A stretch of 64,000 nt of DNA from an uncultured delta proteobacterium (GTDB taxonomy: Bacteria; Desulfobacterota; RBG-13-43-22), in assembly GCA_963782435.1 (NCBI GenBank), contig CAWAKF010000032.1, forward strand, positions 23,400 to 87,399, given 5' to 3'. The notes beneath the pieces were generated by a model. It made no database searches. It was not told where the DNA came from and saw nothing but the letters and a program-made list of their open reading frames with translations. This document shows positions 19,437 to 63,900 of the stretch, in pieces (positions within the stretch are counted from its first letter, which is position 1; every line of letters begins with the position of its first letter). Both the position numbers and the translations under genes were made by a program.

Positions 19437-19767
19437 AAATGAATCCTTTTGGACTGTTTTGACCTAATTTTAAATTACTTAAAATTGATTTTAACACAGG
19501 TTGGTTTATACTGCAAATTACATTGGAATGGAGGGTGCCCTAGGAAACCTTTCCGAGAGAGGCCGTTTTTTTTGGTTGACAACCCTTATGAAAGGTTTAA
19601 ATTACCCTCCGTCATCCCCAATCTTGCAGGATGACCGGCGAATTCTCCGAAACCAAGCCGGAGGAGCGGGGGACCCGATCAATCGGGGCGAATCCGTTTA
19701 TACGGTAGGGCACTATTCACCTCCTGCCCGAGCCCGTCAGCTAACCTCGCAGCCATGAGGGGGTAAT

Positions 19768-21626
19768 TTGATAAAGATCGTTGTTCTAACGGTTCTCAAT
19801 GCCGGGCTGATTGTACTGTTTGGTGCCCTTTTGAGACGGCGCAATCTTCTCTCCTATCATCAGGGGGGGAGGGTCTGGCTCACCTATTTGTCCATAGGGG
19901 TCATCACCCTAATGGACGAGTTTACCTCCATCTTTTACGTCCCGGCGGAGGCCTACCGTTTTATCGGTTTAAGCGCCATACCCTTTATCGTCATCACCAG
20001 CCTGTTGATCCGTTTTGTCAGCACCCGCCTTACGGAAATTGCCGAAATCCTCGAGCATCATCAACTCATCGGAGGCGGGGTCTACTCTTTTCTTATCTGG
20101 TCTTGGGGCCGATGATGTCTTTTGTGGCCGTATCCTCGATTATGGTGGATTACATCCTGACCGCCTGTATCTCCGCGGTCAGTGCGGTCTCCAATGCCAC
20201 CTCCTTTTTCCCGATCCCTCAATCAACGGCCTTGATTCTGGTGCTGGCCATCATCTGGGCCGTGGCCGGTTTGAATATTTCCGGGATCAGGGAAAATGCC
20301 CGGTTCACCTTCATGATCTTTATCGGTGCTGCTTTTGTCATTCTTAATTTGATCGTCTCCGGTATCCTTAATCTGGACCAAGGTTCTTTTGGCCAAATGC
20401 ACCTGGCGACATCTCAGGCCTTTAAACACGTCAACACCGGGTCGATGCTGGGGGATTACGGCCATGTTATTTCAAGTATTGCTTTTTGCATCCTGGCCTA
20501 CTCCGGGGTTGAATCTGTGCTCCAAACGGCCGGGTTTGTGCGCAGTTGGAAAGAAATCCGTAAGGCCTACTGGTTTCTGGCCTTGACTGTGGGGGTGGTG
20601 ACCCCTTTAGTGACCATCCTGGTCCTATCGACCCGGATCGATTTCAAGGCCCATGAAGGGGACCTGATTACCCATTATGCCACCTTGCTAAATGGGATCC
20701 CTTTTGGCTTGGTGGTAGGTGCCCTGGCCAGCTTTACCCTGACTCTAGCCGTGAATACCGCCTTTGTGGCCTCCAGCGAGCTCATGGAACGGGTTGCCGA
20801 CCGCTACGGTTTTCATTGGCTGATCGCCACCAATCGGCGACAATCTCTGTATCGTATCCATCTGTCCAGTGCCGTTTTCTTTTCTTTTATTGTCCTTCTC
20901 ACCATGGGGAGTCAGGCGCAACTGGCTAACATGTATGCCCTGGGGCTTTTGGCTTCCTTTTGTATCAACATGGGTTCCCTTATTATTTACCGGTATTTTC
21001 AAGGTAAGGGGGATGGGATCACCTATTCCACCAGCCGCTTCGGAACTCTGATTCTCTGGGTCATTCTGGTCAGTTGTTTTATTTTTCTGGCTTTTGACAA
21101 ACCCCAGGCGACCATGCTTTGGGCCACGGTGACCGGAGCGATGCTCCTTCTTGGATTTTGGGTGGCTAAAAAACGTTCTCCGGAGACCAAAGAGATCGAA
21201 CAGGGGGAAAATGAAATGGGGATGCTTCTTTATCTGGCCGAGTCCGAGGAGCGGGATATTCATCTCTTTTTCAGAAGATCGGAGGAAACCGATGAGACCA
21301 AGGCCAAAGGGAATGAGGCCTATATTTCTTTTTATTCCCCTCGGGTGGGTGGGCTACCCCCTAAGACGGTGCCCAATCAATTTCGCTTTCCTTTGTCCAA
21401 AATCAGTCTTTTTCATCGTATCATGAGCCTGCTCCGGGTGGTCGAATATGAAATGGGCGATCGATCCGTTACGGTTCATTTTGGCTGGCCCATGTCTTCC
21501 TGGTGGGAGCGGTTATCCATCGGGGTCATGGTTTTCAATCTGATGAAGTTACCGAGACTTTTTCCTCAATTCGAATTCGAAATTTATTATAAAAAGCGGC
21601 CCTTCCTTTCAAAAAAGGGAGATTAA
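19768..21626 (+). pseudogene. APC-superfamily transporter with a long cytoplasmic C-terminal domain. It is split by a -1 frameshift in a GGGG run near 20105. Possible sequencing error.
   Basis: ORF 19768..20115 is TM1-3, and ORF 20103..21626 continues the same transporter. Adding one G at tcttggggccg restores ...IWSWGPMMSFVAV. Confidence 0.6.
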
Positions 21627-22912: not shown

Positions 22913-23885
22913 GTGAAGATTGGGATTTTTTCGATGAATAAAGTGAAAAAGATTCTATTGACTATCGTTGTTGTTATTGCAGTGGTCAATATCGGGGTTT
23001 TGATCTTGATGAATTTTGCACCGAAGGCGCAAATTGCCGGGGCCATCATTTATTTTGAGCGAACCCGAGCCGGCCTCGAGAGAAAAACCATTGAGATTCC
23101 GGGATTCCGAGTGGCCTACCTGGAAGGGGGCTCCGGCGACCCCTTGTTACTCCTTCACGGAAGCGGCGATGATAAGGACATCTGGACGCCGGTGTCGAAT
23201 TATTTAACAAAGCACTTTCGCGTGATCGCCTTGGATCTGCCTGGTTTCGGAGAGAGTGATAAACCGGCCGAACGAACCTATACGGCGCAAGGCCAGGTGG
23301 AAAACGTCAAGGCTTTTACCCGTGCCCTGGGGCTCACCTCCTTTCATCTCGGAGGTCATTCCCTGGGTGGTAAAATATCAGCCATCTATGCCGCAAAAAA
23401 CCCTTCCCAAGTCAAGAGTCTTTGGTTGCTGGCACCGGCCGGGGTGTATTCGGCCCAGCCCAGTGAGATGCACAAATATATCCATAAGCGATATCGAATT
23501 CCCATTTACGGTCGAACTCTGGAAGAGTTCGACCAATTACTTTTTTTCACTATGAACAAACCCCCTTACATCCCTAAACCGGTCAAGAAAGTACTGATCG
23601 AACGTGCTGCGGTCGATCACGAACTGCATAATAAGATCTACCAGGAGATTTATCAGGGAAGCCTTTCATCTGGAGGAAATTGCCGAGGGCCTGGCCGTGC
23701 CGACCCGAATCGTCTGGGGCGATCAAGACCGAATACTTCATTGTTCCGGAGCTAAGATTCTGGATAAATTATTGCCCGACTCTTCCGTGCTGGTCCTGAA
23801 AGGGGTCGGCCATGTCCCTATGATCGAGAAGCCCAGGCTGGTTGCCGAAGATTTTAAGGCCTTTATTGAATCGGCGATAAACTAA
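22913..23885 (+). pseudogene. Alpha/beta-hydrolase fold protein, frameshifted near 23650 next to a GGG run. Possible sequencing error.
   Basis: HGSGDD oxyanion region and nucleophile elbow GHSLGG in ORF 22913..23755. The catalytic-His C-terminus (GVGHVPMIE) is in the overlapping ORF 23604..23885. Confidence 0.6.
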
Positions 23886-24245: not shown

Positions 24246-25172
24246 ATGTCCTATAAATTTGATTCGCTGATGCTGATCCTGAATAAGATGGACAGCCAGG
24301 AGAAGGTGACAGTCGATTCTTTGAAAGAAGAACTGGGCGTGAGTGAAAGGACAATTTTTCGGTATATGAACACCCTGCTGGCGGCGGGGTTTCCCGTCGC
24401 CTTTGATAAAGAAAAAGGAGGATATCGGTTTATGGAAGGCTATGGCTTAAAAAAGCCGGATTTATCCCTGAATGAGACGTTGGCCCTGGGCATTTCCAGG
24501 AAGATGATGGCCGGCATGGGCGGAGGCTGGGAAGAGAGCATGAAACGGATCGAAGAGAAACTTTCTGTCAAAAAGCCGGGACTACCTCGGCACATTGTCC
24601 TGTCCGGCGGACCTTTGCCGGAGGCGGTGGCCGGGCATATCGGGATGATCCATAAGGCCATTATGAATTTCCAGAAAATTAAAATGACCTATTCACCCCT
24701 CTATTCGGATGAAAAAACCAAACGGAAAGTGGATCCCTATTATCTATTTTTTGAAGAGGACTTCTGGTATTTCCGCGGATATTGTCACCTCCGGGAAGAG
24801 GTCCGCACTTTTGCCCTGGACCGGATTATGAGTTTAAAAGTTCTGGAAGAACATTTCATCCCCAGGAACATCGCCCCGGAGGAGGAACTGTCCGGGGCTT
24901 TCGGAACTGTGGTGGACGGGGAGCCGGTGGAGATTGTCTTAAGATTCGATGCTGAGAGCCGCCCTTATCTTCAAAGAAAAAGATGGCACGAAAGTCAACG
25001 GGAAAGAATCCTAAGAGACGGCCGGCTGGAATTACGATTTACCGTCAACGGCCTGGAGGGGATCACCCCCTGGATTTATCGCTGGCTGCCTCATGTGGAG
25101 GTGGTTTCTCCGGCAAGATTGAGGGAGGGGGTTAAGGAAGAATTAAGGCAGGCCTTAAAAAAATACGCCTGA
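24246..25172 (+). CDS. WYL-domain transcriptional regulator (HTH + WYL + WCX); YafY-like
   Basis: N-terminal HTH (LKEELGVSERTIFRYMNTL) and a WYL region (DPYYLFFEEDFWYFRGYCHLREEVRTFALDRI). Confidence 0.75.
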   Translation: MSYKFDSLMLILNKMDSQEKVTVDSLKEELGVSERTIFRYMNTLLAAGFPVAFDKEKGGYRFMEGYGLKKPDLSLNETLALGISRKMMAGMGGGWEESMKRIEEKLSVKKPGLPRHIVLSGGPLPEAVAGHIGMIHKAIMNFQKIKMTYSPLYSDEKTKRKVDPYYLFFEEDFWYFRGYCHLREEVRTFALDRIMSLKVLEEHFIPRNIAPEEELSGAFGTVVDGEPVEIVLRFDAESRPYLQRKRWHESQRERILRDGRLELRFTVNGLEGITPWIYRWLPHVEVVSPARLREGVKEELRQALKKYA

Positions 25173-29954: not shown

Positions 29955-30257
29955 ATGCATGTGATCGCACGAAAGGTTCTGAACGAATTTTCCAACAGTT
30001 ATCCCCGGTCCAGGAAACCACTTGATTCCTGGTGGACCATTTGTAACAAGAATCATTTTCCAAACTTTGTTGAATTGAAAAAAACTTTTGGAACAGTCAA
30101 CTTGATCAATAATTGTCTTGTTTTCAATATCGGCGGCGGTAAATACAGGTTGGTTGTCAGGGTGAATTTTTCCGCTCAGAGGATGTGGATTAAATACGTT
30201 TTGAGTCATGAAGAATATGATAAGATTGATTTAAAAGGAGATCCAAGATGCCGTTAG
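29955..30257 (+). CDS. higB: Type II toxin HigB (YgjN/RelE-fold mRNA interferase)
   Basis: Strong similarity to E. coli HigB (MHVI.RK.L..F...YP...VFNIGG.KYRLVV.V.F....I.IK.VLTH.EYD). It lies upstream of the antitoxin, the HigBA order. Confidence 0.7.
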   Translation: MHVIARKVLNEFSNSYPRSRKPLDSWWTICNKNHFPNFVELKKTFGTVNLINNCLVFNIGGGKYRLVVRVNFSAQRMWIKYVLSHEEYDKIDLKGDPRCR

Positions 30258-30631
30258 CCCGCAAAAAAGACTTTTCAAAAAATCTATATCCATTGAAGGT
30301 CATAAAAAATGAAGAAGATTACCAGGAGGCCCTGAAATCCATGAAGGCGGTTTTTGACGAAACTGAAGGGGATTTAGCGGATTATACCGAAACCCTGACC
30401 CTTCTGATTGAAAAGTATGAAGAGTCCCTTGTTTCCTTCCCGGAATCGTCAGGAATTGAAGTATTGAAATTCCTGATGGATCAAAACGGACTAAAACAAA
30501 AGGATCTGGCCGGTATTTTGGGCGGCAAATCCACTGTTTCCGAATTGCTTAATGGTAAAAGACCTTTTAACCTGAACCATATAAGATTATTGGCCAAGAA
30601 GTTTAATGTAAGACCAGCCACGTTTGTTTAA
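30248..30631 (+). CDS. higA: HigA antitoxin (XRE-family HTH)
   Basis: C-terminal HTH (LKQKDLAGILGGKSTVSELLNGKRPF). Overlaps higB by 10 nt. Confidence 0.7.
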   Translation: MPLARKKDFSKNLYPLKVIKNEEDYQEALKSMKAVFDETEGDLADYTETLTLLIEKYEESLVSFPESSGIEVLKFLMDQNGLKQKDLAGILGGKSTVSELLNGKRPFNLNHIRLLAKKFNVRPATFV

Positions 30632-30710
30632 CTCGGAAGATGAAAACAATTATGTAGGTCGGGGTATTTTTGGGGACCTTTGATAAGAAACCGGCCCAAA
30701 CTACGGATAA

Positions 30711-31036
30711 CCTCCATTAAAAATATTTCTTTGCAAATTAGCCAGTTATATTCTATAATTCCCTTTTAGTCTCAATCTTTCAAATACCCTTCCTTAAGAT
30801 CTTAAGGAGATTCATGGCCCTGATCCAGATCTTAAAAGATCCATTCGATAAAACACCAATTCCAGTAGGTTATATCCGCCGCTTTATTAATCAGTTTAAA
30901 TACCATTATTTTAGAGAAAGACATCTTAGTATTTTTCCTGAATGACAGGGAAATAGACCCCGGTGGTGCCATCTCGCCGGGCAAGTACTCTATGCCCGAA
31001 GGGCATTGAGAATAAATAAAAAGGAGAAACACGACA
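30711..31036 (+). repeat. Promoter-leader cassette, copy C: sigma-70 promoter TTGCAA-17-TATAAT (30731-30759), the cttaagatcttaag palindrome over the RBS, and a 44-aa leader ORF (from the ATG at about 30814)
   Basis: Shares the conserved promoter, the tttcaaat box, the palindrome, and the leader N-terminus MA(L/Q)I.I.KDP with copies at 49.7, 55.5 and 59.7 kb. It lacks the 150-bp hairpin insert. Confidence 0.7.
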
Positions 31037-32965
31037 ATGATAGGATTAATAGGGTGGATTGTCTTATATCTGGTAGGTTTTATTATTCTGGTCCTTATCC
31101 TTCGCGGTTTTTGTTTAATCGGCGCCAATCAAGTCGGTATCCTGACTAAAAACATGTTCGGCAAAAAAATGCCTGAGGGACAGATCATCGCCCGTCATGG
31201 AGAAATAGGGGTCCAAGCAAAAACGTTGATGCCGGGACTCTATTGGAGGCTTCCTATCATTTGGTCATTTACAAAAATTCCGGTCGTGACGGTAGATATT
31301 GCCAGTATCGGGATCGTCGAATCGATTGACGGCGAACCGCTCCCCAAAGGCAGAGTGTTAGCCGACGAAGTCGAGTGCAATCAATTTCAAGATGCGGAGA
31401 TGTTCTTGGCCAACCATGGAAAGAAGGGACCGCAGGTTGGAATTCTACGTCCAGGCACTTACCGGATCAATATGAAACTGTTCAATATTACCAAAGCGCC
31501 GGCGATAAAAATAGCTGAGAATACCATTGGTATCGCCGTGGCTAAAGATGGTATTCCCTTACCGACCGGCTATGTCATCGCCCCGAAGGCTCTCAATGAT
31601 GACGGGTCCGAAGCGGACCACAAAGCGTATCAAAACGGGCAGCTCTTTATCGATAGCAAAGGATACCGGGGACCGCAGTTGGATACCCTCCAGCCGGGAA
31701 TATATTTCATCAATCCGAACTTATTTGATATTAAAATTGAAGCGGTAGCCGAGGTACTTCCGGGATATGTGGCCGTAATCCGATCTAACGTGGGTTTGGA
31801 GTTGGAGAGGGTACCTGAAGGGCCCGATCGAAGTACCGGTGAAGGAAAATTCGGCGGTCCGATCCATGAAGATGTCGAGAAAATACTGATAACCGATAAA
31901 TACACCCGCGGCATTTGGAGGGAGCCGATAGCACCTGGAAAATACAATCTGAATGCGGTTGCTTTCACCGCCTATCAAGTGCCAACTTCCGCGGTTACCA
32001 TTGATTGGGCCACCGAGGGAAGAATCGGGACAGAGGTCAGGGGAGTTAAATCATCGGAGACCAAGGCTGCTGCGGTCTTATACAGTTTTGATCCCTTGAA
32101 GGTGACTTCCAAAGACGGCTTTCAACTGGAAGTCAATGTACGAATGGTGATTCGAATTCAGCCAGGCAATGCGGCCTATATCATAGCCCGGTTCGGGTCG
32201 GTGGCCAATCTGATTGATCAAATCGTCCATCCGCTGATTGATTCTTCCTTCAGGAATAAAGCCGGCGAGAAGAAAGCGATCGACTTTTTCCAAAGCCGGA
32301 CGGACTTACAGACCGAAGCCCTGATCCATGCCAAAGAAAGATTTGCCGAGTACAATGTGGAGGCCCAAAACCTGCTCATCGCTTATATCGACATCCCTAA
32401 GGATTTGCTGGACACTCAAACCAAAAAAGAGATTGCCAATCAACAGCAAGCTCAGTACGACCAGGAGGCGATGGCTCAAGAAAAGCGTATCGCGGTCATG
32501 GAGAAATCGTCCCGGGCGGATAAACAAAAAGATGTTATTGATGCCAAATTATCCATAGACATCAATAATGACCGGGCCGAGGCCAAGGTTAAGGAAGCGG
32601 ACGGTAACCGGCGGTCTGTGATTCTCCAAGCCCAAGGGACCAGAGAATCCACCATATTGATGGCTCAAGGGACCAAAGAATCGACCATCCTGGTGGCGGA
32701 CGCCAATTCGTACAAAAGCAAGATTGAGGGGGACGGGGTGGCCGCCGCCTACAATGCTCAGAAGGAGGCCATTGGTCAGCAGAACGTAGCGATCATCAAA
32801 CTGATTCAGGAAATAGCAGCCGGAAAGATTCAGATTGTGCCCCAGGTTTTGGTTGGGGGCGGGGAGGGCTCAGCCAGCGGAAACCTGTTCAATGCCTGGC
32901 TATCCCAAATGATTTCTCAAAACGTAGCGAAAAGTGAAGAAAAAGAGATGAAAGCGGATGAATGA
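31037..32965 (+). CDS. Flotillin-like SPFH/Band-7 family membrane protein (YqiK-like)
   Basis: N-terminal TM helix, an SPFH-like region, then a long Ala/Glu/Gln-rich coiled-coil with repeated QAQGT(R/K)ESTIL units. Confidence 0.7.
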   Translation: MIGLIGWIVLYLVGFIILVLILRGFCLIGANQVGILTKNMFGKKMPEGQIIARHGEIGVQAKTLMPGLYWRLPIIWSFTKIPVVTVDIASIGIVESIDGEPLPKGRVLADEVECNQFQDAEMFLANHGKKGPQVGILRPGTYRINMKLFNITKAPAIKIAENTIGIAVAKDGIPLPTGYVIAPKALNDDGSEADHKAYQNGQLFIDSKGYRGPQLDTLQPGIYFINPNLFDIKIEAVAEVLPGYVAVIRSNVGLELERVPEGPDRSTGEGKFGGPIHEDVEKILITDKYTRGIWREPIAPGKYNLNAVAFTAYQVPTSAVTIDWATEGRIGTEVRGVKSSETKAAAVLYSFDPLKVTSKDGFQLEVNVRMVIRIQPGNAAYIIARFGSVANLIDQIVHPLIDSSFRNKAGEKKAIDFFQSRTDLQTEALIHAKERFAEYNVEAQNLLIAYIDIPKDLLDTQTKKEIANQQQAQYDQEAMAQEKRIAVMEKSSRADKQKDVIDAKLSIDINNDRAEAKVKEADGNRRSVILQAQGTRESTILMAQGTKESTILVADANSYKSKIEGDGVAAAYNAQKEAIGQQNVAIIKLIQEIAAGKIQIVPQVLVGGGEGSASGNLFNAWLSQMISQNVAKSEEKEMKADE

Positions 32966-38644: not shown

Positions 38645-39196
38645 ATGTCATTTGACCGCGAGGATTGTTTTATGGAACTCTTCAGTTACTTTTTTCGTTA
38701 TCTGATCTCTGCATTGTTGTTAATTATTATGTATTCTATCGCCATACCGGTAGGGATAATAAGCCGGCCTCTTGCCTGGAGAATTATTAAACAAGGGGAC
38801 AGGATCTTTTTAAAAATGTTCGGAGTTGAAGTAATCTGGGAATATGACACTCAATATATTGACCCCGTTTCAGGATTTGCTGTCCCCCCGTCTTCAGGAG
38901 GTGTCGTTATCGGATTAACCCCAAAAAGCCTTATTGACCCAATAATCGCCCAGTCCAAGGCACCAAGGATATTTATGTCAATCTGGAATATTGAATATGC
39001 CCTGATACCATTTATTGGTTGGATATCATGGATTTTTGGATGGGTAATTATTCGACAGCTTCCTAATCAGGCTAAGGGGAAAACTATTAAAGCGGAATCT
39101 TATCTTCGAAAAGGCGGTTTAGTTGATTTAGAAACCCCCGCCCTAAGGGCGGGGTCATGTGGACTGGCTATGCCGGTCCCGAATGGGCTTGGCTGA
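38645..39196 (+). CDS. Hypothetical membrane protein. Its last 20 codons are supplied by the 275-bp repeat, so it is probably truncated or fused.
   Basis: Hydrophobic segments. The reading frame runs into repeat copy 1 at about 39128. Confidence 0.3.
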   Translation: MSFDREDCFMELFSYFFRYLISALLLIIMYSIAIPVGIISRPLAWRIIKQGDRIFLKMFGVEVIWEYDTQYIDPVSGFAVPPSSGGVVIGLTPKSLIDPIIAQSKAPRIFMSIWNIEYALIPFIGWISWIFGWVIIRQLPNQAKGKTIKAESYLRKGGLVDLETPALRAGSCGLAMPVPNGLG

Positions 39197-39430
39197 AAGG
39201 CCATTTCTTGGCCCGTTTCGGCATTCCGGGCTTGACCCGCTTCCTGCCCGTAGGCATCCAGGCCTGAGGCGGAATCCAGGGATTTCAGCTTTTCCTGGAC
39301 CCCGGCTTTCGCCGGGGTGAAGGCATCTATTAGATTTTAAAGTTTAGGGTTCAGGTTTGAATCTGTTATTTTAAGCCCCCCTCTGGGGGGCCCAATTAAA
39401 GCCACGTCCTATGGGCGTGGATTATTTACT
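39128..39430 (+). repeat. GC-rich interspersed repeat, copy 1 (303 bp, with a 28-bp insert carrying a cccccc-tct-gggggg hairpin)
   Basis: About 95% identical to 45498..45772 in the same orientation. Contains several hairpins (cccgccc-taa-gggcggg; ccccggc-tttc-gccgggg). Confidence 0.75.
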
Positions 39431-44958: not shown

Positions 44959-45528
44959 TTAGGTTGTTGAAACGACCTTCAGTTTCGTAAAAACCGGTCC
45001 CCTGGCCCAGGTGCGGATAGTTTCCCAGTCTCGGAAATCGCCTTCCGGCGACTCCTTCGACTGAATGATTATCTTATTCAACCCTGAGAGGTTGTTGTAA
45101 TGCATCACTCCGGCAAAAGGTTCAATATCGACCGGCTTTACCTGGGGAATGGTTTGAAGAACAGGATCTAAAAAGGACAAGGCTTTCCGTCGATTCTCTT
45201 CCGTTGGCTGGCGCATGGTCATACAGACCATGAAATAGGCCACCGGAATCCGACTCATCACTTCTGCGTTGGCCTGCACAAAATTTACAGCCTCGGACAT
45301 CCATTTGCCCCGATAAATGGCACTGCCCACAACTACCCCTTGATAGGAGCTTAAGTTTTTTACGTTTCTTATTAGGGAAACATCTGCCTTCGCCCCCTTA
45401 CTGCATAATTCTTTCCCGATGGCCTCAGCCACACCGCCGGTGGATCCGTACTGGCTGGTGTAGGCAACTAATATTTTTTGGCCTATTTTAGTTTGAATTA
45501 GAAACCCCCACCCTAAGGGCAGGGTCAT
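44959..45528 (-). CDS. Flavodoxin-like fold protein. Its first 10 codons, including the ATG, lie inside the 275-bp repeat.
   Basis: KILVAYTSQYGSTGGVAEAIGKEL flavodoxin-type N-terminus. No in-frame start exists outside the repeat. Confidence 0.55.
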   Translation of the reverse strand: MTLPLGWGFLIQTKIGQKILVAYTSQYGSTGGVAEAIGKELCSKGAKADVSLIRNVKNLSSYQGVVVGSAIYRGKWMSEAVNFVQANAEVMSRIPVAYFMVCMTMRQPTEENRRKALSFLDPVLQTIPQVKPVDIEPFAGVMHYNNLSGLNKIIIQSKESPEGDFRDWETIRTWARGPVFTKLKVVSTT

Positions 45529-45772
45529 GTGGACTGGCTATGCCGGTCCCGAATGGGCTTGGCTGAAAGGCCATTTCTTGGCCCGTTTCGACATTCCGGG
45601 CTTGACCCGCTTCCTGCCCGTAGGCATCCAGGCCGGAGGCGGAATCCAGGGATTTCAGCTTTTCCTGGACCCCGGCCTTCGCCGGAGTGACGGCATCTAT
45701 TAGATTTTAAAGTTTAGGGTTCAGGTTTGAATCTGTTATTTTAAGCCCCCCTATGGGCGTGGATTATTTACT
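45498..45772 (+). repeat. GC-rich interspersed repeat, copy 2 (275 bp)
   Basis: Direct repeat of 39128..39430. Confidence 0.75.
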
Positions 45773-49400: not shown

Positions 49401-49689
49401 TTAATCACCTATGCGAAACAGATTTTCGGTCAGTATTGGAAGTCATCCTGCTTAAAATACAGGTTCGTTAAGGAAAACGAAAGTAAAATTTTATAGGCGA
49501 TTTTAATCATATTAAATGTTACCAAAGGGGTTAAGAAGAGGCAGCGAGGCAGGGTCAGGCCTATCTTCTTATCATTTTTTTTATGACAAGAAAATAGACC
49601 ATGGGCGGCGTGAACTTCCCGCTTCGGGGGATCCGGTCTAAACGTCCTGAAGGGGTAACGGCTTCTTATTACTGGTCTGGATACCTGAC

Positions 49690-52143
<2,454 letters not shown>

Positions 52144-52355
52144 TCGCCGCATAAACGTCTTCGAGGGATTCTAACAGGGCGTCAAAAAAACGGTCAGTTA
52201 ACAACCGGTTCCAGCGGACGGCGTACCGCCTCCGCTGAACCGGAACGTGGTTTCGGTCTCGGAATCGGTAAGGAGGCTGAAGGATGGACGGAATACGCAG
52301 TGAAGTTTTTGGAAAAACACATATCTATGTGAGAGCCATGTTCATAATGGGAATT

Positions 52356-52454
52356 GGGAACGCCCTTTGTATATTTGCATTTGATTAAGAAAATTTGATT
52401 AAGGGGTGATTTTCGAAAAGTAATATTGAATGTAAATATACAAAGGGCGTTCCC
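52356..52454. repeat. MITE-like inverted-repeat element, copy 1 (about 100 bp; about 30-bp arms gggaacgccctttgtatatttgcatttgatt)
   Basis: Near-perfect terminal inverted repeats around a 40-nt AT-rich spacer. Second copy at 59624..59722 with the same spacer. Confidence 0.65.
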
Positions 52455-52719
52455 TTGATACGCTTTGGTAATTTACTTTTTTTCCAGTGTCCCCATCTCC
52501 AAACGGCGATTGAACATAACAACTCCCGGAGTTGTATATACTGTGAGGAGTGGAGAAAGTATCGCTAAAGAGTTTAATTATAGCCTATTAGATTGAGTTA
52601 TTTACTTATTTAAGGACGTCCCTAAGTACACATTTTACTCATTTGGAGATGATGGAATATTCGTGGGCAGATTTTAAAATCTTTTGACAGTTTGACTGAC
52701 GAATCACTCTCTGCTGAAT

Positions 52720-55419: not shown

Positions 55420-55981
55420 TCCTTAAAGAAGAAGGAGAGTCAGGTCTAATTTCTTAGCATTCTACTTTATAACAAGAAAATAAACCCTGGGTGGCGCAAA
55501 CTTCCCGCATCAAGGAATCAGGTTTAAAACTCTATTTAAAATATTTCTTTGCAAATTAGCCGGTTATACTCTATAATTCCCTTCAGCCTTAATATTTCAA
55601 ATCCCTTGAGACCTTTGAAAAATGTTCAATTTTTGTCAAGGTCAAGGAAGGCGAAAATTTCAACCACAGGAATATGTTTAATATTTCGAGGATTGAAATT
55701 TGAGCCTGACGCAGAGATTGAGCAAAAGGGGGCATTTTTCAAAGGTCTCACCCTTCTTTAAGATCTTAAGGAGACTTATGGCCCAGATCCATATCTCAAA
55801 AGATCCACTTAATATAACACCCATTTCAGGTAAGATTCAGATGGTGCCCCAGGTTCCGACCTTCAGATGTAAACAGGATCAGGGTGTGTTTAAATTGAAC
55901 AAAAAACCTGCTAAGCATAGAAAACAGGTGTTGAACAACTGAATTAAAATAATTAAATCAATTAAATAAGGAGACTTTGAA
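55420..55981 (+). repeat. Promoter-leader cassette, copy A (most complete): sigma-70 promoter TTGCAA-17-TATAAT (55549-55577), a 150-bp insert bounded by 17-bp inverted repeats (55608-55758), the cttaagatcttaag palindrome, and a 54-aa leader ORF
   Basis: About 90% identical to copy B over 350 bp, then diverges in the 3' half of the leader ORF. Confidence 0.75.
55778..55942 (+). CDS. Conserved leader small ORF of the cassette (54 aa; MAQIHISKDPLNITPISGKIQ...)
   Basis: AAGGAG RBS 7 nt upstream. The N-terminal 20 codons are conserved in copies B and C. The C-terminal half diverges but keeps amino-acid similarity with copy B. Confidence 0.4.
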   Translation: MAQIHISKDPLNITPISGKIQMVPQVPTFRCKQDQGVFKLNKKPAKHRKQVLNN

Positions 55982-56344
55982 ATGATCGAGAAAATATCTG
56001 ATCTACCGGACAATGTCCTCGGCTTCACCGCTAAGGGGACGGTAACCGCGAATGACTACGAGTCCGTTATCATTCCAGCCGTGGAGGGACTGTTCTCTCG
56101 CCAGGGGAAGGTTCGGTTCCTCTATCATCTCGGTGAAGACCTAACGGGATTCGACGCCGCCGCTATGTGGGACGACACGAAATTGGGTCTGAAGCACCTC
56201 TCCGGCTGGGAGAGAATGGCAATCGTATCGGACATCGAATGGGTTAGAGCGGCGATCAAGATCTTTGGGTTTATAATCCCCGGGCATTTTCGCGTGTTTC
56301 ATAACAACGAACTCGCCGAGGCAAAACAATGGATCAGCGAGTAA
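55982..56344 (+). CDS. STAS/SpoIIAA-like domain protein
   Basis: 120 aa, resembling the STAS/SEC14-like family (DUF3478-type). Confidence 0.55.
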   Translation: MIEKISDLPDNVLGFTAKGTVTANDYESVIIPAVEGLFSRQGKVRFLYHLGEDLTGFDAAAMWDDTKLGLKHLSGWERMAIVSDIEWVRAAIKIFGFIIPGHFRVFHNNELAEAKQWISE

Positions 56345-56602: not shown

Positions 56603-56944
56603 ATGGGGCAGAGCAGTCCAACTTTGTTAACTGAAGATCGGGTTCTTGAAGTAATGGTGGACCGATTGATAGCGGCCTTTCAGCCGGACCGAATTTATCT
56701 TTTTGGATCGAAAGCCCGAGAAGATTCAAAGGCAGACAGTGACTATGACTTGATGGTTATCGTCTCGGACGATGCTCCATTTGAAAAACGGCGAAGCCGC
56801 TTAGCTTACCAGGTGCTTCGAGGAACTCGGACAGCCGCTGATGTCTTGGTCTGGACCAAAACAGCTTTTGATAAACGCCTTCATATTCCATCCTCATTGC
56901 CTTCCCTAATAGAACGAGAAGGGAAGCTGCTTTATGCCGCATGA
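56603..56944 (+). CDS. Minimal nucleotidyltransferase (MNT), HEPN/MNT toxin-antitoxin module component
   Basis: GS(x)n...DxD motif LFGSKAREDSKADSDYDLMVIV. Confidence 0.7.
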   Translation: MGQSSPTLLTEDRVLEVMVDRLIAAFQPDRIYLFGSKAREDSKADSDYDLMVIVSDDAPFEKRRSRLAYQVLRGTRTAADVLVWTKTAFDKRLHIPSSLPSLIEREGKLLYAA

Positions 56945-57905: not shown

Positions 57906-58145
57906 ATGTCCAGGACGCTATCACTTAAAATGCGAGATGACATTTTTTCAGAAACCGAAGAGGTTATCGACACGATCCATACATCTAGAAATGCTTACAT
58001 TAACGATGCCTTGAGCTTTTACAATAAGTTTATGAAGCGACGCATCCTGAAAAAGCTGCTAAAAAAAGAGTCTATTTTGGTATCGGAAACATCACTTGAG
58101 GCGCTACAGGAATTAGAACTTATTGAAGACAAGCTGCCCAAATGA
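57906..58145 (+). CDS. Ribbon-helix-helix antitoxin partner of MazF
   Basis: N-terminal RHH-like segment. Its stop overlaps the mazF-like start as ATGA. Confidence 0.5.
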   Translation: MSRTLSLKMRDDIFSETEEVIDTIHTSRNAYINDALSFYNKFMKRRILKKLLKKESILVSETSLEALQELELIEDKLPK

Positions 58146-58483
58146 AGCCGATCAAATTCCATGTGTATACAGCCGACCTCAATCCCCGCTTCGGCACTGA
58201 ACCCGGCAAGATCCGGCCGGTGATTGTCGTCCAAACGAATCTCTTGAATGAGAACCATCCCAGCACCATCATTTGCCCCATCACCACAAAAATTCAACTG
58301 GGGGCAGACATTCTGCGCATTCATCTAAAAAAAGGCGAGGCGGGACTTGAGCATGATTCAGATATTATCGTCGATCAGATACGTTCGATCGACAACCGGA
58401 GGTTTCTTGATCATCTTGGAGCGATTTCGGATAAAAACAAACGACTTTTTCTGTCCAGCCTTCGAATTGTGATCCTTGAATAG
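58142..58483 (+). CDS. MazF/PemK-family endoribonuclease toxin
   Basis: PemK signature ...TEPGKIRPVIVVQTN....ICPITT. Confidence 0.75.
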   Translation: MKPIKFHVYTADLNPRFGTEPGKIRPVIVVQTNLLNENHPSTIICPITTKIQLGADILRIHLKKGEAGLEHDSDIIVDQIRSIDNRRFLDHLGAISDKNKRLFLSSLRIVILE

Positions 58484-58644
58484 GAGAAGTACATAAGGTG
58501 ATTGACCATCTGATTTGGGGATCTGAGGAATATATGGGTTCGTTCAACCAGTCGTTCAAGCGGCCATGCCGCTTAACTCATCGTTGGCGCCGCCTGCGGC
58601 GTCGTCAATGTGGCGTTGCCCCTATTGGGTCCATAGGAATAAAA

Positions 58645-58761: not shown

Positions 58762-58882
58762 GTCATGGGGGTCAAATCTTTTATCTTTACATTTCAAAAT
58801 GTTTCCTTAGAAAAAAAGGGGGGCTTTGAGGAGTGTGCGCCAGCAAAAAGTCGAGGATAAAGAATTGACCCCAATTTTGCAA
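58762..58882 (+). repeat. 120-bp repeat (gtcatggggg-tcaaatcttttatctttacatttcaaaatgtttccttag...gtgtgcgccagcaaaaagtcgaggataaagaattgacc...gcaa), copy 1, upstream of the nitroreductase
   Basis: About 88% identical to 63780..63900. Confidence 0.6.
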
Positions 58883-59604: not shown

Positions 59605-59623
59605 AGTATTAAATGTGTGAATG

Positions 59624-59722
59624 GGGGATGCCCTTTGTATATTTACATTTGATTGTGAAGATTTGATTAAGGGGGAGTTTTCGAAAAGTAATATTGAATG
59701 TAAATATACAAAGGACATTCCA
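59624..59722. repeat. MITE-like inverted-repeat element, copy 2, 20 bp downstream of the nitroreductase stop
   Basis: Arms ggggatgccctttgtatatttacatttgatt / aatattgaatgtaaatatacaaaggacattcca. Spacer about 85% identical to copy 1. Confidence 0.65.
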
Positions 59723-59739
59723 TCGATAGTCCCCTGCGG

Positions 59740-60155
59740 TTAAAATATTTCTTTGCAAATTAGCCGGTTATATTCTATAATTCCCTTCAGCAATAATATT
59801 TCAAATCCCTTGAGACCTTTGAAAAATGTTCAATTTTGGTCAAGGTCAAGGAAGGCGAAAATTTTGACCACAGGAATATGTTTAATATTTCGAGGATTGA
59901 AATTTGAGCCTGACGCAGAGATTGACCAAAAGGGGGCATTTTTCAAAGGTCTCACCCTTCTTTAAGATCTTAAGGAGACTCATGGCCCAGATCCATATCT
60001 CAAAAGATCCACTTAATATAATACCCGTTTCCGGCAAGATTGAGATTTTTTCCCAGATTCTGACCCTCAGATGGAAACAGAAGCAAGTTTTGTTCAAATT
60101 GAACGGGAACCCCCTAAGTATAGAAATCAGGTGTTGAACAACTTAATTAAAATAA
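59740..60155 (+). repeat. Promoter-leader cassette, copy B: promoter 59756-59784, the 150-bp insert, the palindrome, and a 51-aa leader ORF (59982..60137). No downstream cargo gene. It abuts the IS91-like element.
   Basis: Near-identical to copy A through the leader N-terminus. The sequence beyond 60160 is AT-rich, then the IS91 end begins. Confidence 0.7.
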
Positions 60156-60570
60156 TAATATCAATTGAATATGGCATATTTATTTTTATTTAAAATGATC
60201 AATATTAATTCCTCTTGGTAGTTGAAAAGAAACTATTCAATAACTTGTTCTCGGCGACTGCGTCGCCGAGAATCGCGGCGCTGATTTCGTCCAGCGCCTT
60301 GTCCTGGCGCCTTGCGCCAGAACGAATAAGGATAGATTGTGAGAGCGAAGCGAACCACAATCTTATCCGTTTGGTTGAACGAGCCCGATTACTTTATATA
60401 AGGAAATATCTTTTTTGAGAAGGAGTTTTAAGAGAAGCTTTAAAGAGATGCACCCTGTTCAGGGCGTAGGGGTACCTTAGCATTTAACATGCTTAAAAAA
60501 AACTGGATTATTTCATAAAGTGTTAGGCCTCCAGATGGAAGTTACAGTCAGCCCTTGCCATAGAGGTAAA

Positions 60571-61625
60571 TTACCCTGATTTCAGTGCAGGATAACGAAA
60601 ACCGAGAATAAGCATTGGGGTTTGACAGCAGGGACACTTAAAAACAGGTCTTGGCCGCTCTTTGATAACTTTAAGAAAAACCCGCAAAATCAATTGGACA
60701 ACAAAAAGGAGTTTCTTGGCGTTGCTATGGAGAAACCCATAGTCCCTGACCCGCCGAAATCCCCTGGGCAGGACATGCTGCAGGATGAGAAACAAAAAAT
60801 CTTCTCCCTTAAGGGTGCGATATCGAGTTTTACCGGTTTTGCTTTCAATATATCGAAAGGTGATTTGGTCATTCTGATTTAAAATGATATTTTTTTCACT
60901 GATAACTTCGCGGTATAGATATCGGGATAAATATTTCAGGGCGCTTATCCCCTTTCCTACCTGAGAGCAGTCAACGACCCATTCTCCGGAAACGCTTCTG
61001 GGGATGGAAAGCCTGGCCTCATTTAAAGCTGCCAGGAATCTGGCCCGAAAAACTTTCGCCATGGCCTTTAAGTTAAACAGATACTTGCTTTTTTTCTTTT
61101 TCCACTGGCGCCTTTTTTATCGACACCTCCGCCAGGTACCACCGCATGAACATGAGGATGGTAGTCCAGTTTTCTGCTGTTAGTATGCAAGACCATGGTC
61201 AGGCCGATATCCGCTCCAAGGTTTTTTGGATTCAAGCCAAAATCCTTAAGGGTGTTGGCGGCGCAGGAAAACAAAATAGAATAGACGGTTTTCTGATGAT
61301 TCCAGGCCAATGACCTTAATTCACGGGGCAGTGTAAAGGTCACCATAAAATAGGGAACCGGCAACAGTTTGGCCTGCTGCCGGTCAATCCACTGGTTGAC
61401 TTCATGGTTTTGACATTGGGGACAACTGCGGTGCCCGCAGGACAGTGGTCGCCATTGTCCATGACCACAACCGGGACAATGCACATAAAGTTCACCGGAA
61501 TCAGGGGTACGGCAACGACGAATGGCCTGGATCGCCTTGAGATGACCGGGTAATACGGTATCGCCATACCGGGTTATAAAGGCATCAGAATATTGATTAA
61601 TGATCGAGGCCAGTTCCATAATCAC
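60571..61625 (-). pseudogene. IS91-family transposase. The N-terminal zinc-binding ORF and the C-terminal ORF are separated by a frameshift in A-runs near 61065-61100.
   Basis: CPGCGH...CGHRSCPQC zinc motif and HPHVHAVV HUH motif. Frame 2 reads KKKKSKYLFNLKAMAKVF across the break. Confidence 0.6.
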
Positions 61626-62526
61626 ACCTTCCTCAGATCGACATGAAGGCTGTTGATCAAAGCATTAATGGCCGTGAAGCTGTCTTTTTCTGTGACATCG
61701 GTCAGATGAGCATAACGGGCGGTTGTGGTAGGACTGGCATGGCCAAGCAGAACCTGGATATGACGAAGGCTTAAGCCGCGTTCAAGAAGATGAGTGGCAA
61801 AACTGTGGCGAAGGGAGTGTATGGAGACTTTTTTTTAATACCGCATTCCGTGACCACTGTTTTCATGGCATTTTGTGCGCCGCCTCTATCCATATGCGTT
61901 GTGGCCTTCTGGATGGTTTTAAGATGGCCATTGGCATTGGGGAATATAAAATAGGGATGACGATGCCTTTTCCAGAGTTCACGCAAGGCCTGCAAGGTCA
62001 GATCCGGTAATGGCACAAGACGATCTTTGTGGCCTTTGCCCCGGCGGATATGAACCTTTTTACGCCCGGCATCGATATCGCCGACCTGAAGAGACAAAGC
62101 CTCTTCCAGGCGAAGTCCCAGGGAATAGGTGGTCAATAAGAAAACACGATGGCGTAATTTTCGTGTGGCCCCGATGAGCTGCTCCACTTCGGCCGGGGTA
62201 AGAATATCAGGTATCGTATAAATCTTTGGAGGCTTTACGATGGTCAGCCATTGCCAATCCTTTTTAAGGACATACTTCCAAAAGAATTGCAGTCCGTTTC
62301 GATCGATTTTGACCGTACTCCAGGAATGGCTGGCAACCAGTTCGGCAAAATACATTTCAAATTGTTCTTGGGTCAATTGATCAGGACAGCAGTCAAAATA
62401 TTCACGGACTCGACGGATTGCCCGGGAATAGGCGTCAATTGTTTTTTGACTTTTTCCTTGAAGTTTTAGCAGCCTCAGGTGACATTGATAAAGCTTGTTA
62501 AATCGATTTACTTCTTTTGGATTCAT
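61622..62526 (-). pseudogene. Tyrosine recombinase (phage-integrase family) associated with the IS91 element. Frameshift in an A8 run at about 61830.
   Basis: N-terminal SAM-like domain. After a +1 correction in aaaaaaaag, the C-terminus reads [43 protein letters not shown] (R..HxxR..Y catalytic region). Confidence 0.6.
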
Positions 62527-63557: not shown

Positions 63558-63827
63558 ATGCCAGCTTGCTGGCATGCGTCCGTGTTAAGCAAAGTTATAC
63601 GAGGATACGAGAACGTGATTCGCGACTATTCTAAAGAGTATTATCATCTGCGAAACTTCGAGGACCTCGCGTACGACGCGGTTTACTTGTTGTATCAGGC
63701 ACAAGATGTAGACCGCGAGCATGACAACCATGGACATGAGTTCACTTATGCACGGTCCTCTCTGCTGAATACATTACTTGTCATGGGGTCAGATCTTTTA
63801 TCTTTACATTTCAAAATGTTTCCTTAG
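63558..63827 (+). CDS. Hypothetical 89-aa protein whose 3' end lies inside the 120-bp repeat
   Basis: ORF only. Its C-terminal codons ...VMGSDLLSLHFKMFP are encoded by the repeat. Confidence 0.25.
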   Translation: MPACWHASVLSKVIRGYENVIRDYSKEYYHLRNFEDLAYDAVYLLYQAQDVDREHDNHGHEFTYARSSLLNTLLVMGSDLLSLHFKMFP

Positions 63828-63900
63828 AAAAAAGGAAGATCCTTGAAGAGTGTGCGCTAGCAAAAAGTCGAGGATAAAGAATTGACCCAATTTTCTGCAA
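63780..63900 (+). repeat. 120-bp repeat, copy 2
   Basis: See 58762..58882. Confidence 0.6.

Follow-up and report, generated by a model that had tools for sequence, protein, structure and literature searches.

The 64,000-nucleotide (nt) stretch analysed here (the window; positions 23,400 to 87,399 of contig CAWAKF010000032.1, assembly GCA_963782435.1, from an uncultured delta proteobacterium) contains a short intergenic module, made up of a promoter block (P) and a leader block (L), in front of genes that are not related to one another. An earlier, sequence-only reading of this DNA had described four copies, which we name A (30.7 kb, before a flotillin gene), B (49.7 kb, before katG), C (55.5 kb, before a STAS gene) and D (59.7 kb, without cargo), and had taken them for a recombining and possibly undescribed regulatory system. 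Related loci in other genomes, designated below by L and a number, suggest that the module family descends from the flanks of a vapBC toxin-antitoxin operon.

The four copies and their relatives

Nhmmer profiles for P and L, built from all family members, find exactly four promoter blocks in the window, all on the + strand (E 2e-14 to 3e-19) and with no further matches, and exactly three leader blocks, in copies A, C and D. These are located as follows, together with the promoter-like hexamers and the downstream genes.

30703-30778, + strand, P block of copy A (nhmmer)
30731-30759, + strand, promoter-like site of copy A, TTGCAA-17-TATAAT, 10 of 12 consensus matches
30777-30869, + strand, leader block of copy A (nhmmer, E 1.4e-25), with a Shine-Dalgarno (SD) sequence and an ATG at 30814, lacking the insert H1 described below
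31037-32965, + strand, flotillin-like gene (Band_7/SPFH; PF01145, E 4.5e-21)
49687-49752, + strand, P block and vapC-tail remnant of copy B (nhmmer, E 1.9e-14)
49714-49719 and 49737-49742, + strand, TTGCAA and TATAGT of copy B (consensus scan)
49948-52143, + strand, katG (Pfam peroxidase)
55528-55595, + strand, P block of copy C (nhmmer)
55549-55554 and 55572-55577, + strand, TTGCAA and TATAAT of copy C (consensus scan)
55742-55834, + strand, leader block of copy C (nhmmer), SD at 55768-55773, ATG at 55778
55982-56344, + strand, STAS/SpoIIAA-like gene (PF11964, E 1e-26)
59733-59800, + strand, P block of copy D (nhmmer)
59753-59758 and 59776-59781, + strand, TTGCAA and TATAAT of copy D (consensus scan)
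59946-60038, + strand, leader block of copy D (nhmmer), ATG at 59982

All four copies described at 30.7, 49.7, 55.5 and 59.7 kb are thereby recovered. A 33-nt promoter block is found three times in the window with no more than 3 mismatches, where 0.00 matches are expected from shuffles, and the more diverged fourth copy, upstream of katG, emerges from repeat finding. The near-consensus promoter ascribed to each copy is likewise present in all four, as TTGCAA-17-TATAAT in A, C and D and with TATAGT in B, agreeing with the consensus at 9-10 of 12 positions. From the -10 element to the start codon of the next gene the distance is ~280 nt in copy A, 205 nt in B and 405 nt in C.

Copies C and D are the closest pair, with 96% identity over 300 nt and 91% (90.8%) over 436 nt; they are 95-97% identical across P, H1 and L and 77% identical in the tail (T54). 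The remaining pairs reach 86.7% over 83 nt (A-C), 85.2% over 54 nt (A-B) and 79% over 87 nt (B-C). Because the flanks of C and D differ and homologues exist in independent assemblies, the copies are not an assembly artefact, and the possibility raised earlier that they are duplications confined to this window can be set aside. The genes downstream of A, B and C are assigned by Pfam to Band_7, peroxidase and SpoIIAA-like families and are non-homologous, so they are not paralogues, as had been stated; no gene follows copy D. The upstream neighbours, an HTH_3 (HigA) gene, a radical SAM gene on the opposite strand, an SNF2 helicase gene and a nitroreductase gene, are non-homologous as well. About 120 bp upstream of the promoter had been thought common to A and D; this was not found, and it is B and C that share a block there, of 93 nt.

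When 185,579 species genomes were scanned with a 19-mer, eight loci came up, five of them with extended homology and all of these in metagenome-assembled genomes (MAGs) of Thermodesulfobacteriota or "delta proteobacterium". The other three (L001, L005 and L008) lack extended similarity and were discarded as chance 19-mer matches, ~9 of which are expected in 596 Gb. A 27-nt pattern is present in 14 metagenome contigs, all homologous. Since there are 1-2 exact 19-mer matches per MAG, against four copies in this window, this is a low-copy family. Pattern scans of 2.9 million viral contigs and 72,556 plasmids revealed no module; the promoter 19-mer is absent from the viral contigs, two matches to the leader pattern lie inside an unrelated coding region, no plasmid matches, and we accordingly rejected an origin from phage or plasmid. 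On the evidence of these scans the module family appears to be lineage-restricted and low-copy.

Origin of the promoter and the scars around it

The following remnants in the window are recognisable from the related loci. U denotes a block upstream of P in copies B and C, E3 a block near the distal end of the module, and RBS a ribosome-binding site.

30661-30741, + strand, pseudogenised vapC tail of copy A, 80% identical to positions 351-431 of the L006 vapC (blastn), with an internal TAA and the original stop TAG inside CAAATTAG
30925-30985, + strand, U-type segment of copy A, between the short open reading frame (ORF) and the flotillin RBS, aligned with the pre-flotillin leader of L018
49551-49642, + strand, U block of copy B, a flotillin-leader fragment, 78.5% identical to 55436-55528
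55436-55528, + strand, U block of copy C, a flotillin-leader fragment of 93 nt
within 55528-55595, + strand, last vapC codons and stop of copy C (TAG 55557-55559), overlapping the promoter
55922-55971, + strand, truncated E3 block of copy C, joined to the native STAS RBS at ~55966
60125-60256, + strand, complete E3 block of copy D, its 3' half collinear with the promoter, RBS and start of vapB

A vapC gene, intact or cut by the contig end, precedes the P block in L003, L006, L007/L012, L013, L014, L015, L018 and L022. When complete it is a 122-codon ORF ending in ...LHLKYFFAN* (KYSFTN or KYSFAN in three loci). Pfam recognises a PIN domain in the L006 ORF (E 2.7e-8); VapC was checked in this way, and VapB was named from sequence only. 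Pairwise vapC identity is 0.95, 0.96 and 0.81 at codon positions 1, 2 and 3, the pattern of a gene subject to ordinary coding selection. In these relatives the last seven vapC codons and the stop make up the upstream half of the P block: the TAG lies inside CAAATTAG, and the -35 hexamer covers the last two codons. No intact vapBC was detected in the window by tblastn, which finds tails only. That of copy A extends over 81 nt at 80% identity (26 amino acids at 69% identity, E 4e-6, tblastn), and those of B, C and D over 26-32 nt at 94-100% identity, which in C and D amounts to 9-14 codons.

The first 21 nt after the vapC stop, comprising the spacer and the -10 element, do not differ at all between four of the six intact-vapC loci (L003, L006, L013 and L018). 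Third-position identities among these four are 0.67-0.92, and 0.67-0.78 for pairs that include L003 or L006; the promoter spacer and -10 element are more conserved than the synonymous sites of vapC, which are 20-33% diverged. The L block is 0.82-0.91 identical in distant pairs of intact-vapC loci. In every independent short-tailed copy (L004, L009, L010/L020, L013a and, roughly, C and D) the sequence is kept to ~10 nt upstream of the -35 hexamer, a pattern one would expect if derivatives survive only with the promoter intact. Between the P block and katG or STAS there is no other promoter-like site on the + strand. These features point to a functional sigma-70 promoter in the P block, from which flotillin, katG and STAS would now be transcribed. 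On the reverse strand, a promoter-like arrangement TTGAAA-16/17-AATTAT occurs at 30755-30783, 55573-55600 and 59777-59804 (- strand) and has its A/T-rich -10 region in common with the forward promoter; the "tttcaaat" box of the sequence-only reading supplies its -35 hexamer and is conserved in only about half of the family. The promoter may be bidirectional, with an RNA antisense to the 3' end of vapC.

The genes behind copies B and C have relatives in which the upstream DNA is different. In the three nearest relatives of katG (L031-L033, 94-95% identical in amino acids) a FUR-family gene lies 130-220 nt upstream of katG. The window katG has no FUR-family gene upstream, and its homology to L031-L033 begins at 49898-49955, at most 50 nt before the ATG. 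For STAS, homologues from six contigs (L025-L030, 85% nucleotide identity) are similar to the window from 55966 only, 16 nt before the ATG, and their upstream regions are unrelated to that of the window. At the HigA-flanked site, the relative L002 (85-90% nucleotide identity) shares the WYL-regulator and HigA genes flanking copy A, the WYL-domain-type regulator of the window being at 24246-25172, and carries a different gene behind the module. These comparisons show that in the window the module has replaced the native upstream DNA of katG, with loss of the FUR-family gene, and of STAS. The three sites uphold the earlier description of a recombining regulatory module in front of non-paralogous genes.

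The remaining parts of the module can be traced to a flotillin gene and, with less certainty, to vapB. The U blocks of B, C and L010 align with the segment between leader and flotillin RBS in copy A and L018; the window flotillin is 92% identical in amino acids to the flotillins of L018 and L022. The 27 nt that follow L in C, D, L004 and L020 match the flotillin codons for GKIQIVPQV (32822-32848) at 93-96% identity, starting exactly at the point where the leaders cease to be homologous to copy A. Over 53 nt, the 3' half of E3 is collinear with the promoter, RBS and ATG of the L018 vapB, with GAAACTATG changed to GAAACTATT. The local alignment scores 27, against a shuffle maximum of 26 (0/300 shuffles), and is weak against L013. 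In L018 and L022 the order is promoter-(H1)-leader-U-flotillin-vapB-vapC-promoter-leader-tex-vapC tail-promoter-leader, an order from which copies B, C and D can be derived by deletion and re-joining. The vapC tails (10-80 nt), the U blocks, the flotillin scar and the vapB-like 3' block are all present, and the window copies are therefore rearranged remnants of a flotillin-vapBC neighbourhood. A direct repeat, TTGAWAAGAAACT, was considered as an att-like core at both module ends (2 window matches, 0.38 expected) and was rejected; it is better explained by the ends stemming from vapC and vapB.

The leader hairpin and the palindromic inserts

In the leader region of copies B, C and D we distinguish the features below.

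49759-49783, + strand, TTTCAAAT box and truncated left end of H1 in copy B (repeat family), with no L block after it
55607-55750, + strand, palindrome H1 of copy C, 144 nt between the -10 element and L, with 33-nt arms 82% complementary
55750-55834, + strand, nested inverted repeat in the L block of copy C, GATCTT..GAGAC..ATGG / CCAT..ATCTC..AAGATC, enclosing SD and ATG
55778-55942, + strand, 54-codon ORF of copy C, without protein-level selection, its codons 18-26 being the flotillin scar (55829-55855)
59811-59954, + strand, palindrome H1 of copy D, with 33-nt arms 88% complementary, 97% identical to the H1 of copy C

An alignment of 20 distinct leader sequences needs no gaps. Its invariant columns make up a nested inverted repeat, GATCTT..GAGAT..ATGG / CCAT..ATCTC..AAGATC, around the SD and AUG; 97% of the alignment cells in this hairpin pair, and the loop and flanks vary. 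No covariation is seen in L or L-T2, no pair in the 20-sequence alignment showing a compensatory change. In copy A the fold prefers a different local hairpin. The promoter is kept without L in copies B, L009 and L013b, and a degenerate L block in copy B was considered and rejected since the alignment does not support it. The module of L015 ends in an intrinsic terminator, so that this unit can be a stand-alone transcript. A GATC is invariant in both leader arms (GATCTT / AAGATC; 55762-55805 and the family alignment), with a third in the loop of many copies. The cargos neighbouring the module include DNA methylases, and a methylation-sensitive switch is conceivable.

The sequence-only reading had placed a perfect 14-bp palindrome over the RBS in three copies. 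It is perfect in copy A only (CTTAAGATCTTAAG, 30793-30806; 0.18 matches expected from shuffles), C and D reading TTTAAGATCTTAAG; its left half is variable across the 20 family members, and it does not stand as a conserved operator. Its "conserved leader ORF" is conserved in nucleotides over ~17 codons and not as a peptide, the ORFs ranging from 23 to 80 amino acids with unrelated tails (that of copy D differs from that of C). Variability at codon positions 1, 2 and 3 is 0.178, 0.138 and 0.112, the reverse of a coding pattern, and the codon differences comprise 67 synonymous and 443 non-synonymous changes. Related short ORFs number only four among 5.8 billion proteins. A real small protein was rejected because of the reversed codon-position pattern and the lack of any Pfam match. 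No terminator-like site and no terminator/antiterminator alternative were found in the leader, and with the peptide not conserved and its ORF of such variable length a leader-peptide attenuator was rejected too. For annotation, caution is advisable, as the short "leader ORF" and the palindrome resemble features and are not conserved as such.

With Rfam 15, nothing over the module copies attains the gathering threshold, and copy A is overlapped by no match at E up to 5. Over C, D and the block upstream of C there are matches of 22-23 bits, against gathering thresholds of 70-100 (E 0.8-3.8), which is chance level. We rejected a known cis-regulatory RNA or riboswitch on these grounds and on the lack of covariation. 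Nothing was found over four related loci at E up to 1 apart from one notable sub-threshold match over another palindrome, H2 (L018 6368-6539, - strand), to RF04317 aceE-II, with 37 bits against a gathering threshold of 100 and E 6e-8 in a 501-nt search. The aceE-II motif and H2 may belong to one repeat family.

The box cttgagaccttt, described earlier for every copy, is the left end of the 144-nt insert in C and D and is truncated in B; copy A has no such box. The insert, H1, folds in copy C with -64.5 kcal/mol (z -8.9). Its empty site, TTTCAAATACC|CTTCC, is preserved in A, L003 and L022, and the filled site reads ...ACC[TTGAGACC...GGTCTC]ACC... in C, D, L002, L011 and L018. The comparison reveals inverted termini of ~17-33 nt and a flanking duplication of 2-3 bp (ACC/CC), and H1 is therefore an insertion resembling a MITE (a miniature transposable element with inverted repeats), not an original part of the module. 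H1 was not found outside the module in the sequence examined. The unrelated palindrome H2, likewise MITE-like, lies near the same position, between promoter and leader, in other genomes; the window contains only H1. Like the Correia elements of Neisseria and ERIC, intergenic elements that alter expression, H1 is palindromic and MITE-like; it sits in a 5' untranslated region. In contrast to these, it is only a nested passenger, and the module as a whole has neither inverted termini nor a target duplication.

Spread of the module and comparison with known systems

We consider it more probable than any single other account, at roughly 0.6, that these are lineage-restricted non-coding intergenic modules derived from the flanks of a vapBC operon and spread by ordinary recombination. 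The family would have arisen as flanks of the toxin-antitoxin operon, and the window copies would be deletion remnants of a flotillin-vapBC neighbourhood that is still intact in other genomes. The promoter block would drive flotillin, katG and STAS in their new places, and the leader hairpin, by burying the SD and AUG of a non-conserved short ORF, may damp or condition translation or stabilise the 5' end. Copies would spread and be homogenised by homologous or illegitimate recombination between paralogous copies in toxin-antitoxin and defence islands, with no dedicated transposase or integrase moving the module. Of the possible mechanisms, ordinary recombination among paralogous copies is the most economical. 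Both L006 and L007 have the upstream vapC and, downstream, a gene of 736 amino acids, and L007 has in addition tex and a second vapC tail-promoter-leader; this is thus an insertion or deletion bracketed by direct repeats of the module. A private palindromic insertion is common to both L007 copies and absent from the corresponding copies of L018, L011 and L022, a signature of within-genome gene conversion. On the left, homology to vapC begins at positions 345, 351, 361, 380, 385, ~400 and ~408, and the right junctions are scattered, lying after the hairpin (tex, ATPase), inside E3 (STAS) or inside H1 (katG). Cargos and neighbours include HigBA, RelE-like, MazF-like, methylase, AAA ATPase and radical-SAM genes.

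Several observations weigh against this account. The left edge lies within 1-4 nt of AAAATATTTC in at least four independent contexts, and the junction of two cargos, tex and the AAA ATPase, is no more than 1 nt away from the base of the L hairpin; such clustering of junctions could mean a site-specific process, not random breakage filtered by selection. Promoter activity is deduced from consensus and conservation alone, and the high identity between genomes could reflect recent horizontal spread and not purifying selection. The stability of the leader hairpin is ordinary (-13.4 kcal/mol, z -1.6, fold against shuffles), the lack of covariation neither supports nor contradicts the structure because the stems are invariant, and leader conservation could equally reflect a DNA-binding site. 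Finally, the similarity of E3 to vapB seems modest.

Movement by a dedicated recombinase or transposase was considered in two forms. An integron-like platform, in which a dedicated recombinase swaps single-gene cargos at the module and each cargo is expressed from the module promoter, would account for the co-oriented arrays with a module between successive genes (L018, L007, L013, L010), for the junctions at the hairpin base, for the defence- or stress-type cargos and for a cargo that is present or absent between the same flanks in L007 and L006; direct repeats flanking an insertion or deletion, though, are also a product of homologous recombination. A SAM_4 tyrosine recombinase is encoded 1.5 kb from copy D, but it scores 92 bits against the 265-bit TIGR02249 cutoff for integron integrases, is truncated and of IS91 type, and is without a homologue beside the module at any of the other loci. 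As single-stranded DNA, E3 is not an attC-like imperfect palindrome (z +0.36 and -0.69, no better than shuffles), RYYYAAC/GTTRRRY core sites are absent from L and E3, and the left boundaries range over vapC, with the STAS and katG junctions at other points of the module, so that we regard such a platform as highly improbable. Nor do we find it at all likely that the whole 330-530-bp unit from promoter to E3 is a non-autonomous transposable element with an outward promoter, mobilised in trans, for example by an IS91-type element. Solo units do occur in unrelated contexts (copy D, L004/L021, L010/L020), their edges are fairly discrete (AAAATATTTC... on the left, ...AATAACTTGTT on the right), and the right edge contains CTTG/GTTC, which are IS91 target tetranucleotides; an IS91 remnant abuts copy D. 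IS91 is found in no other locus, however. The repeat search gave no terminal inverted repeats spanning the module ends, there is no target duplication in the flanks of C, D, L004, L009, L010 or L013, and neither the low copy number nor the absence from viral contigs and plasmids suits a transposon. The ends are homologous to vapC and apparently to vapB, and some copies reach further into these genes, which fits remnants and not termini.

The other two alternatives concern what the copies do. The conserved leader, with or without its T2/E3 tail, might be a structured cis-regulatory RNA or leader-peptide switch that gates the downstream genes, the promoter being merely its driver; it could sense, for example, translation stress from a neighbouring VapC RNase. 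That L is more conserved than the synonymous sites of vapC, that the invariant SD and AUG are paired in the hairpin while loop and flanks vary, that the module is physically tied to a toxin gene and that the L015 unit ends in a terminator all speak for it. We nevertheless think it decidedly unlikely given the chance-level Rfam matches, the absence of covariation in L or T2, the unexceptional hairpin energy with another local hairpin in copy A, the variable peptide, the missing terminator/antiterminator alternative and the promoters that persist without L. It is also unlikely, if somewhat easier to entertain, that the copies are functionless, decaying toxin-antitoxin debris, alike through recent duplication and gene conversion and not through use. 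Copy D has no cargo and faces the antisense strand of a dead IS91 element, the tails (T54) decay fast, nested MITE-like insertions are tolerated and concerted evolution is evident. Against this, the spacer and -10 element do not vary between genomes in which the synonymous sites of vapC differ by 20-33%, independent copies keep ~10 nt upstream of the -35 hexamer and never less, and the module is the only promoter-like sequence before katG and STAS, the native upstream regions of which are lost. More speculatively, and with very little probability, the defence islands of Syntrophales-like Thermodesulfobacteriota could house a so far undescribed platform for gene shuffling, in which a structure-specific recombinase encoded elsewhere exchanges cargos (flotillin, tex, AAA ATPase, methylase, STAS and katG) at or beside L, at its GATC-rich nested hairpin. 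Each unit would give the next gene a promoter embedded in a toxin gene, integron-like in function and unrelated in mechanism. In a milder version, L would respond, as a leader, to VapC or to methylation of the DNA, linking a small stress regulon with the activity of the toxin.

The element beside copy D, which we judge incidental, is the following.

60571-62526, - strand, degenerate IS91-family element (NCBIfam NF033538)

It consists of a split transposase (61068-61625 and 60571-61062) and the truncated SAM_4 tyrosine recombinase (61771-62526), and tblastn found no homologues of either near the module in other loci. GC-rich hairpins at 60257-60400 may be the end of this element.

vapBC toxin-antitoxin loci multiply and decay within genomic islands. 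The relatives carry an intact vapC with vapB upstream attached to the module, and the window keeps vapC tails and the vapB-promoter-like block; what differs here is that the part which persists and spreads is a non-coding flank, whose promoter points away from the toxin gene. Integron cassettes are similar in being co-oriented single-gene units split by a repeat, with toxin-antitoxin genes and with cargo that varies between relatives. They differ in that the module has no integron integrase, attC fold or core sites, that its repeat has its own promoter and that its junctions vary.

The closest described phenomenon is that of putative mobile promoters, blocks of 50-100 nt that are at least 80% identical and precede non-homologous genes, both within one genome and between related genomes, with upstream neighbours that are also non-homologous (Matus-Garcia, Nijveen and van Passel 2012, Nucleic Acids Res; PMC3488235). 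They are reported to be especially numerous in deltaproteobacteria, for example Geobacter uraniireducens and Desulfurivibrio (PMC3488235). Pairs A-C, A-B and C-D exceed 50 nt at 80% identity or more, B-C falling just short at 79%, and the genes on both sides are non-homologous. The module lies outside the -150 to -50 region used in that paper, which is an operational search rule and not a biological property (PMC3488235). It departs from such promoters in that its origin is traceable to the vapC 3' end and the flotillin and vapB flanks, and in being accompanied by a hairpin leader that is conserved and by a nested MITE-like element.

The module family is not named in the searchable literature text. 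The family itself is new, the phenomenon (mobile promoters and debris of toxin-antitoxin loci) is known, and nothing points to a new mechanism. An undescribed self-contained system, the boldest of the earlier suggestions, is not what we see, since the parts trace to a flotillin gene (leader and C-terminus), to the vapC 3' end and apparently to the vapB promoter region. The locus would rather be a clear, traceable case of promoter recycling, with a ~60-base promoter, starting in a vapC tail, placed before unrelated genes. As regulatory rewiring it is unusually legible: the birthplace of the promoter, the scars of rearrangement and two displaced control regions can all be read. In the case of katG, the neighbouring FUR/PerR-type regulator gene was lost with the displacement. 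Provided that the promoter is active, katG, which serves in oxidative-stress defence, flotillin, a protein of membrane microdomains, and STAS are under one promoter and leader derived from a toxin-antitoxin locus; if this is true, they would form a testable mini-regulon made by recombination and not by point mutation.

Other repeats and genes were noted in the surrounding DNA. Directly upstream of copy D, a hairpin repeat (59616-59728) matches 52348-52460 with 87% identity, and a second pair of long-hairpin repeats of ~100 nt, 58765-58877 and 63785-63894, is 90% identical; both families are probably MITE- or REP-like. A 265-nt direct repeat (39123-39387 and 45493-45757, 97% identity), rich in GC hairpins and lying between unrelated genes, could be another recycled intergenic module. 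The sole Rfam match in the window at threshold is a c-di-AMP riboswitch (RF00379) at 19626-19770 on the + strand, with 83 bits against a gathering threshold of 38. Toxin-antitoxin-rich stretches at 29955-30631, 56603-56944 and 57906-58483 encode HigB/HigA, an MNT-type nucleotidyltransferase and a MazF-like protein; a short ORF overlapping the MazF-like gene upstream is probably its antitoxin. The gene directly after the terminator-ended module of L015 (1186-2314, oriented) combines an RRXRR domain with an N-terminus, "LAIDFGSKYIG", that is RuvC-like, and its product is possibly an IscB- or Cas9-like nuclease. The GC-rich hairpin after E3 in L004 (7654-7711) recurs at 58580-58634 in the window, downstream of the MazF-like gene, with 81% identity over 58 nt, and is another small dispersed repeat.

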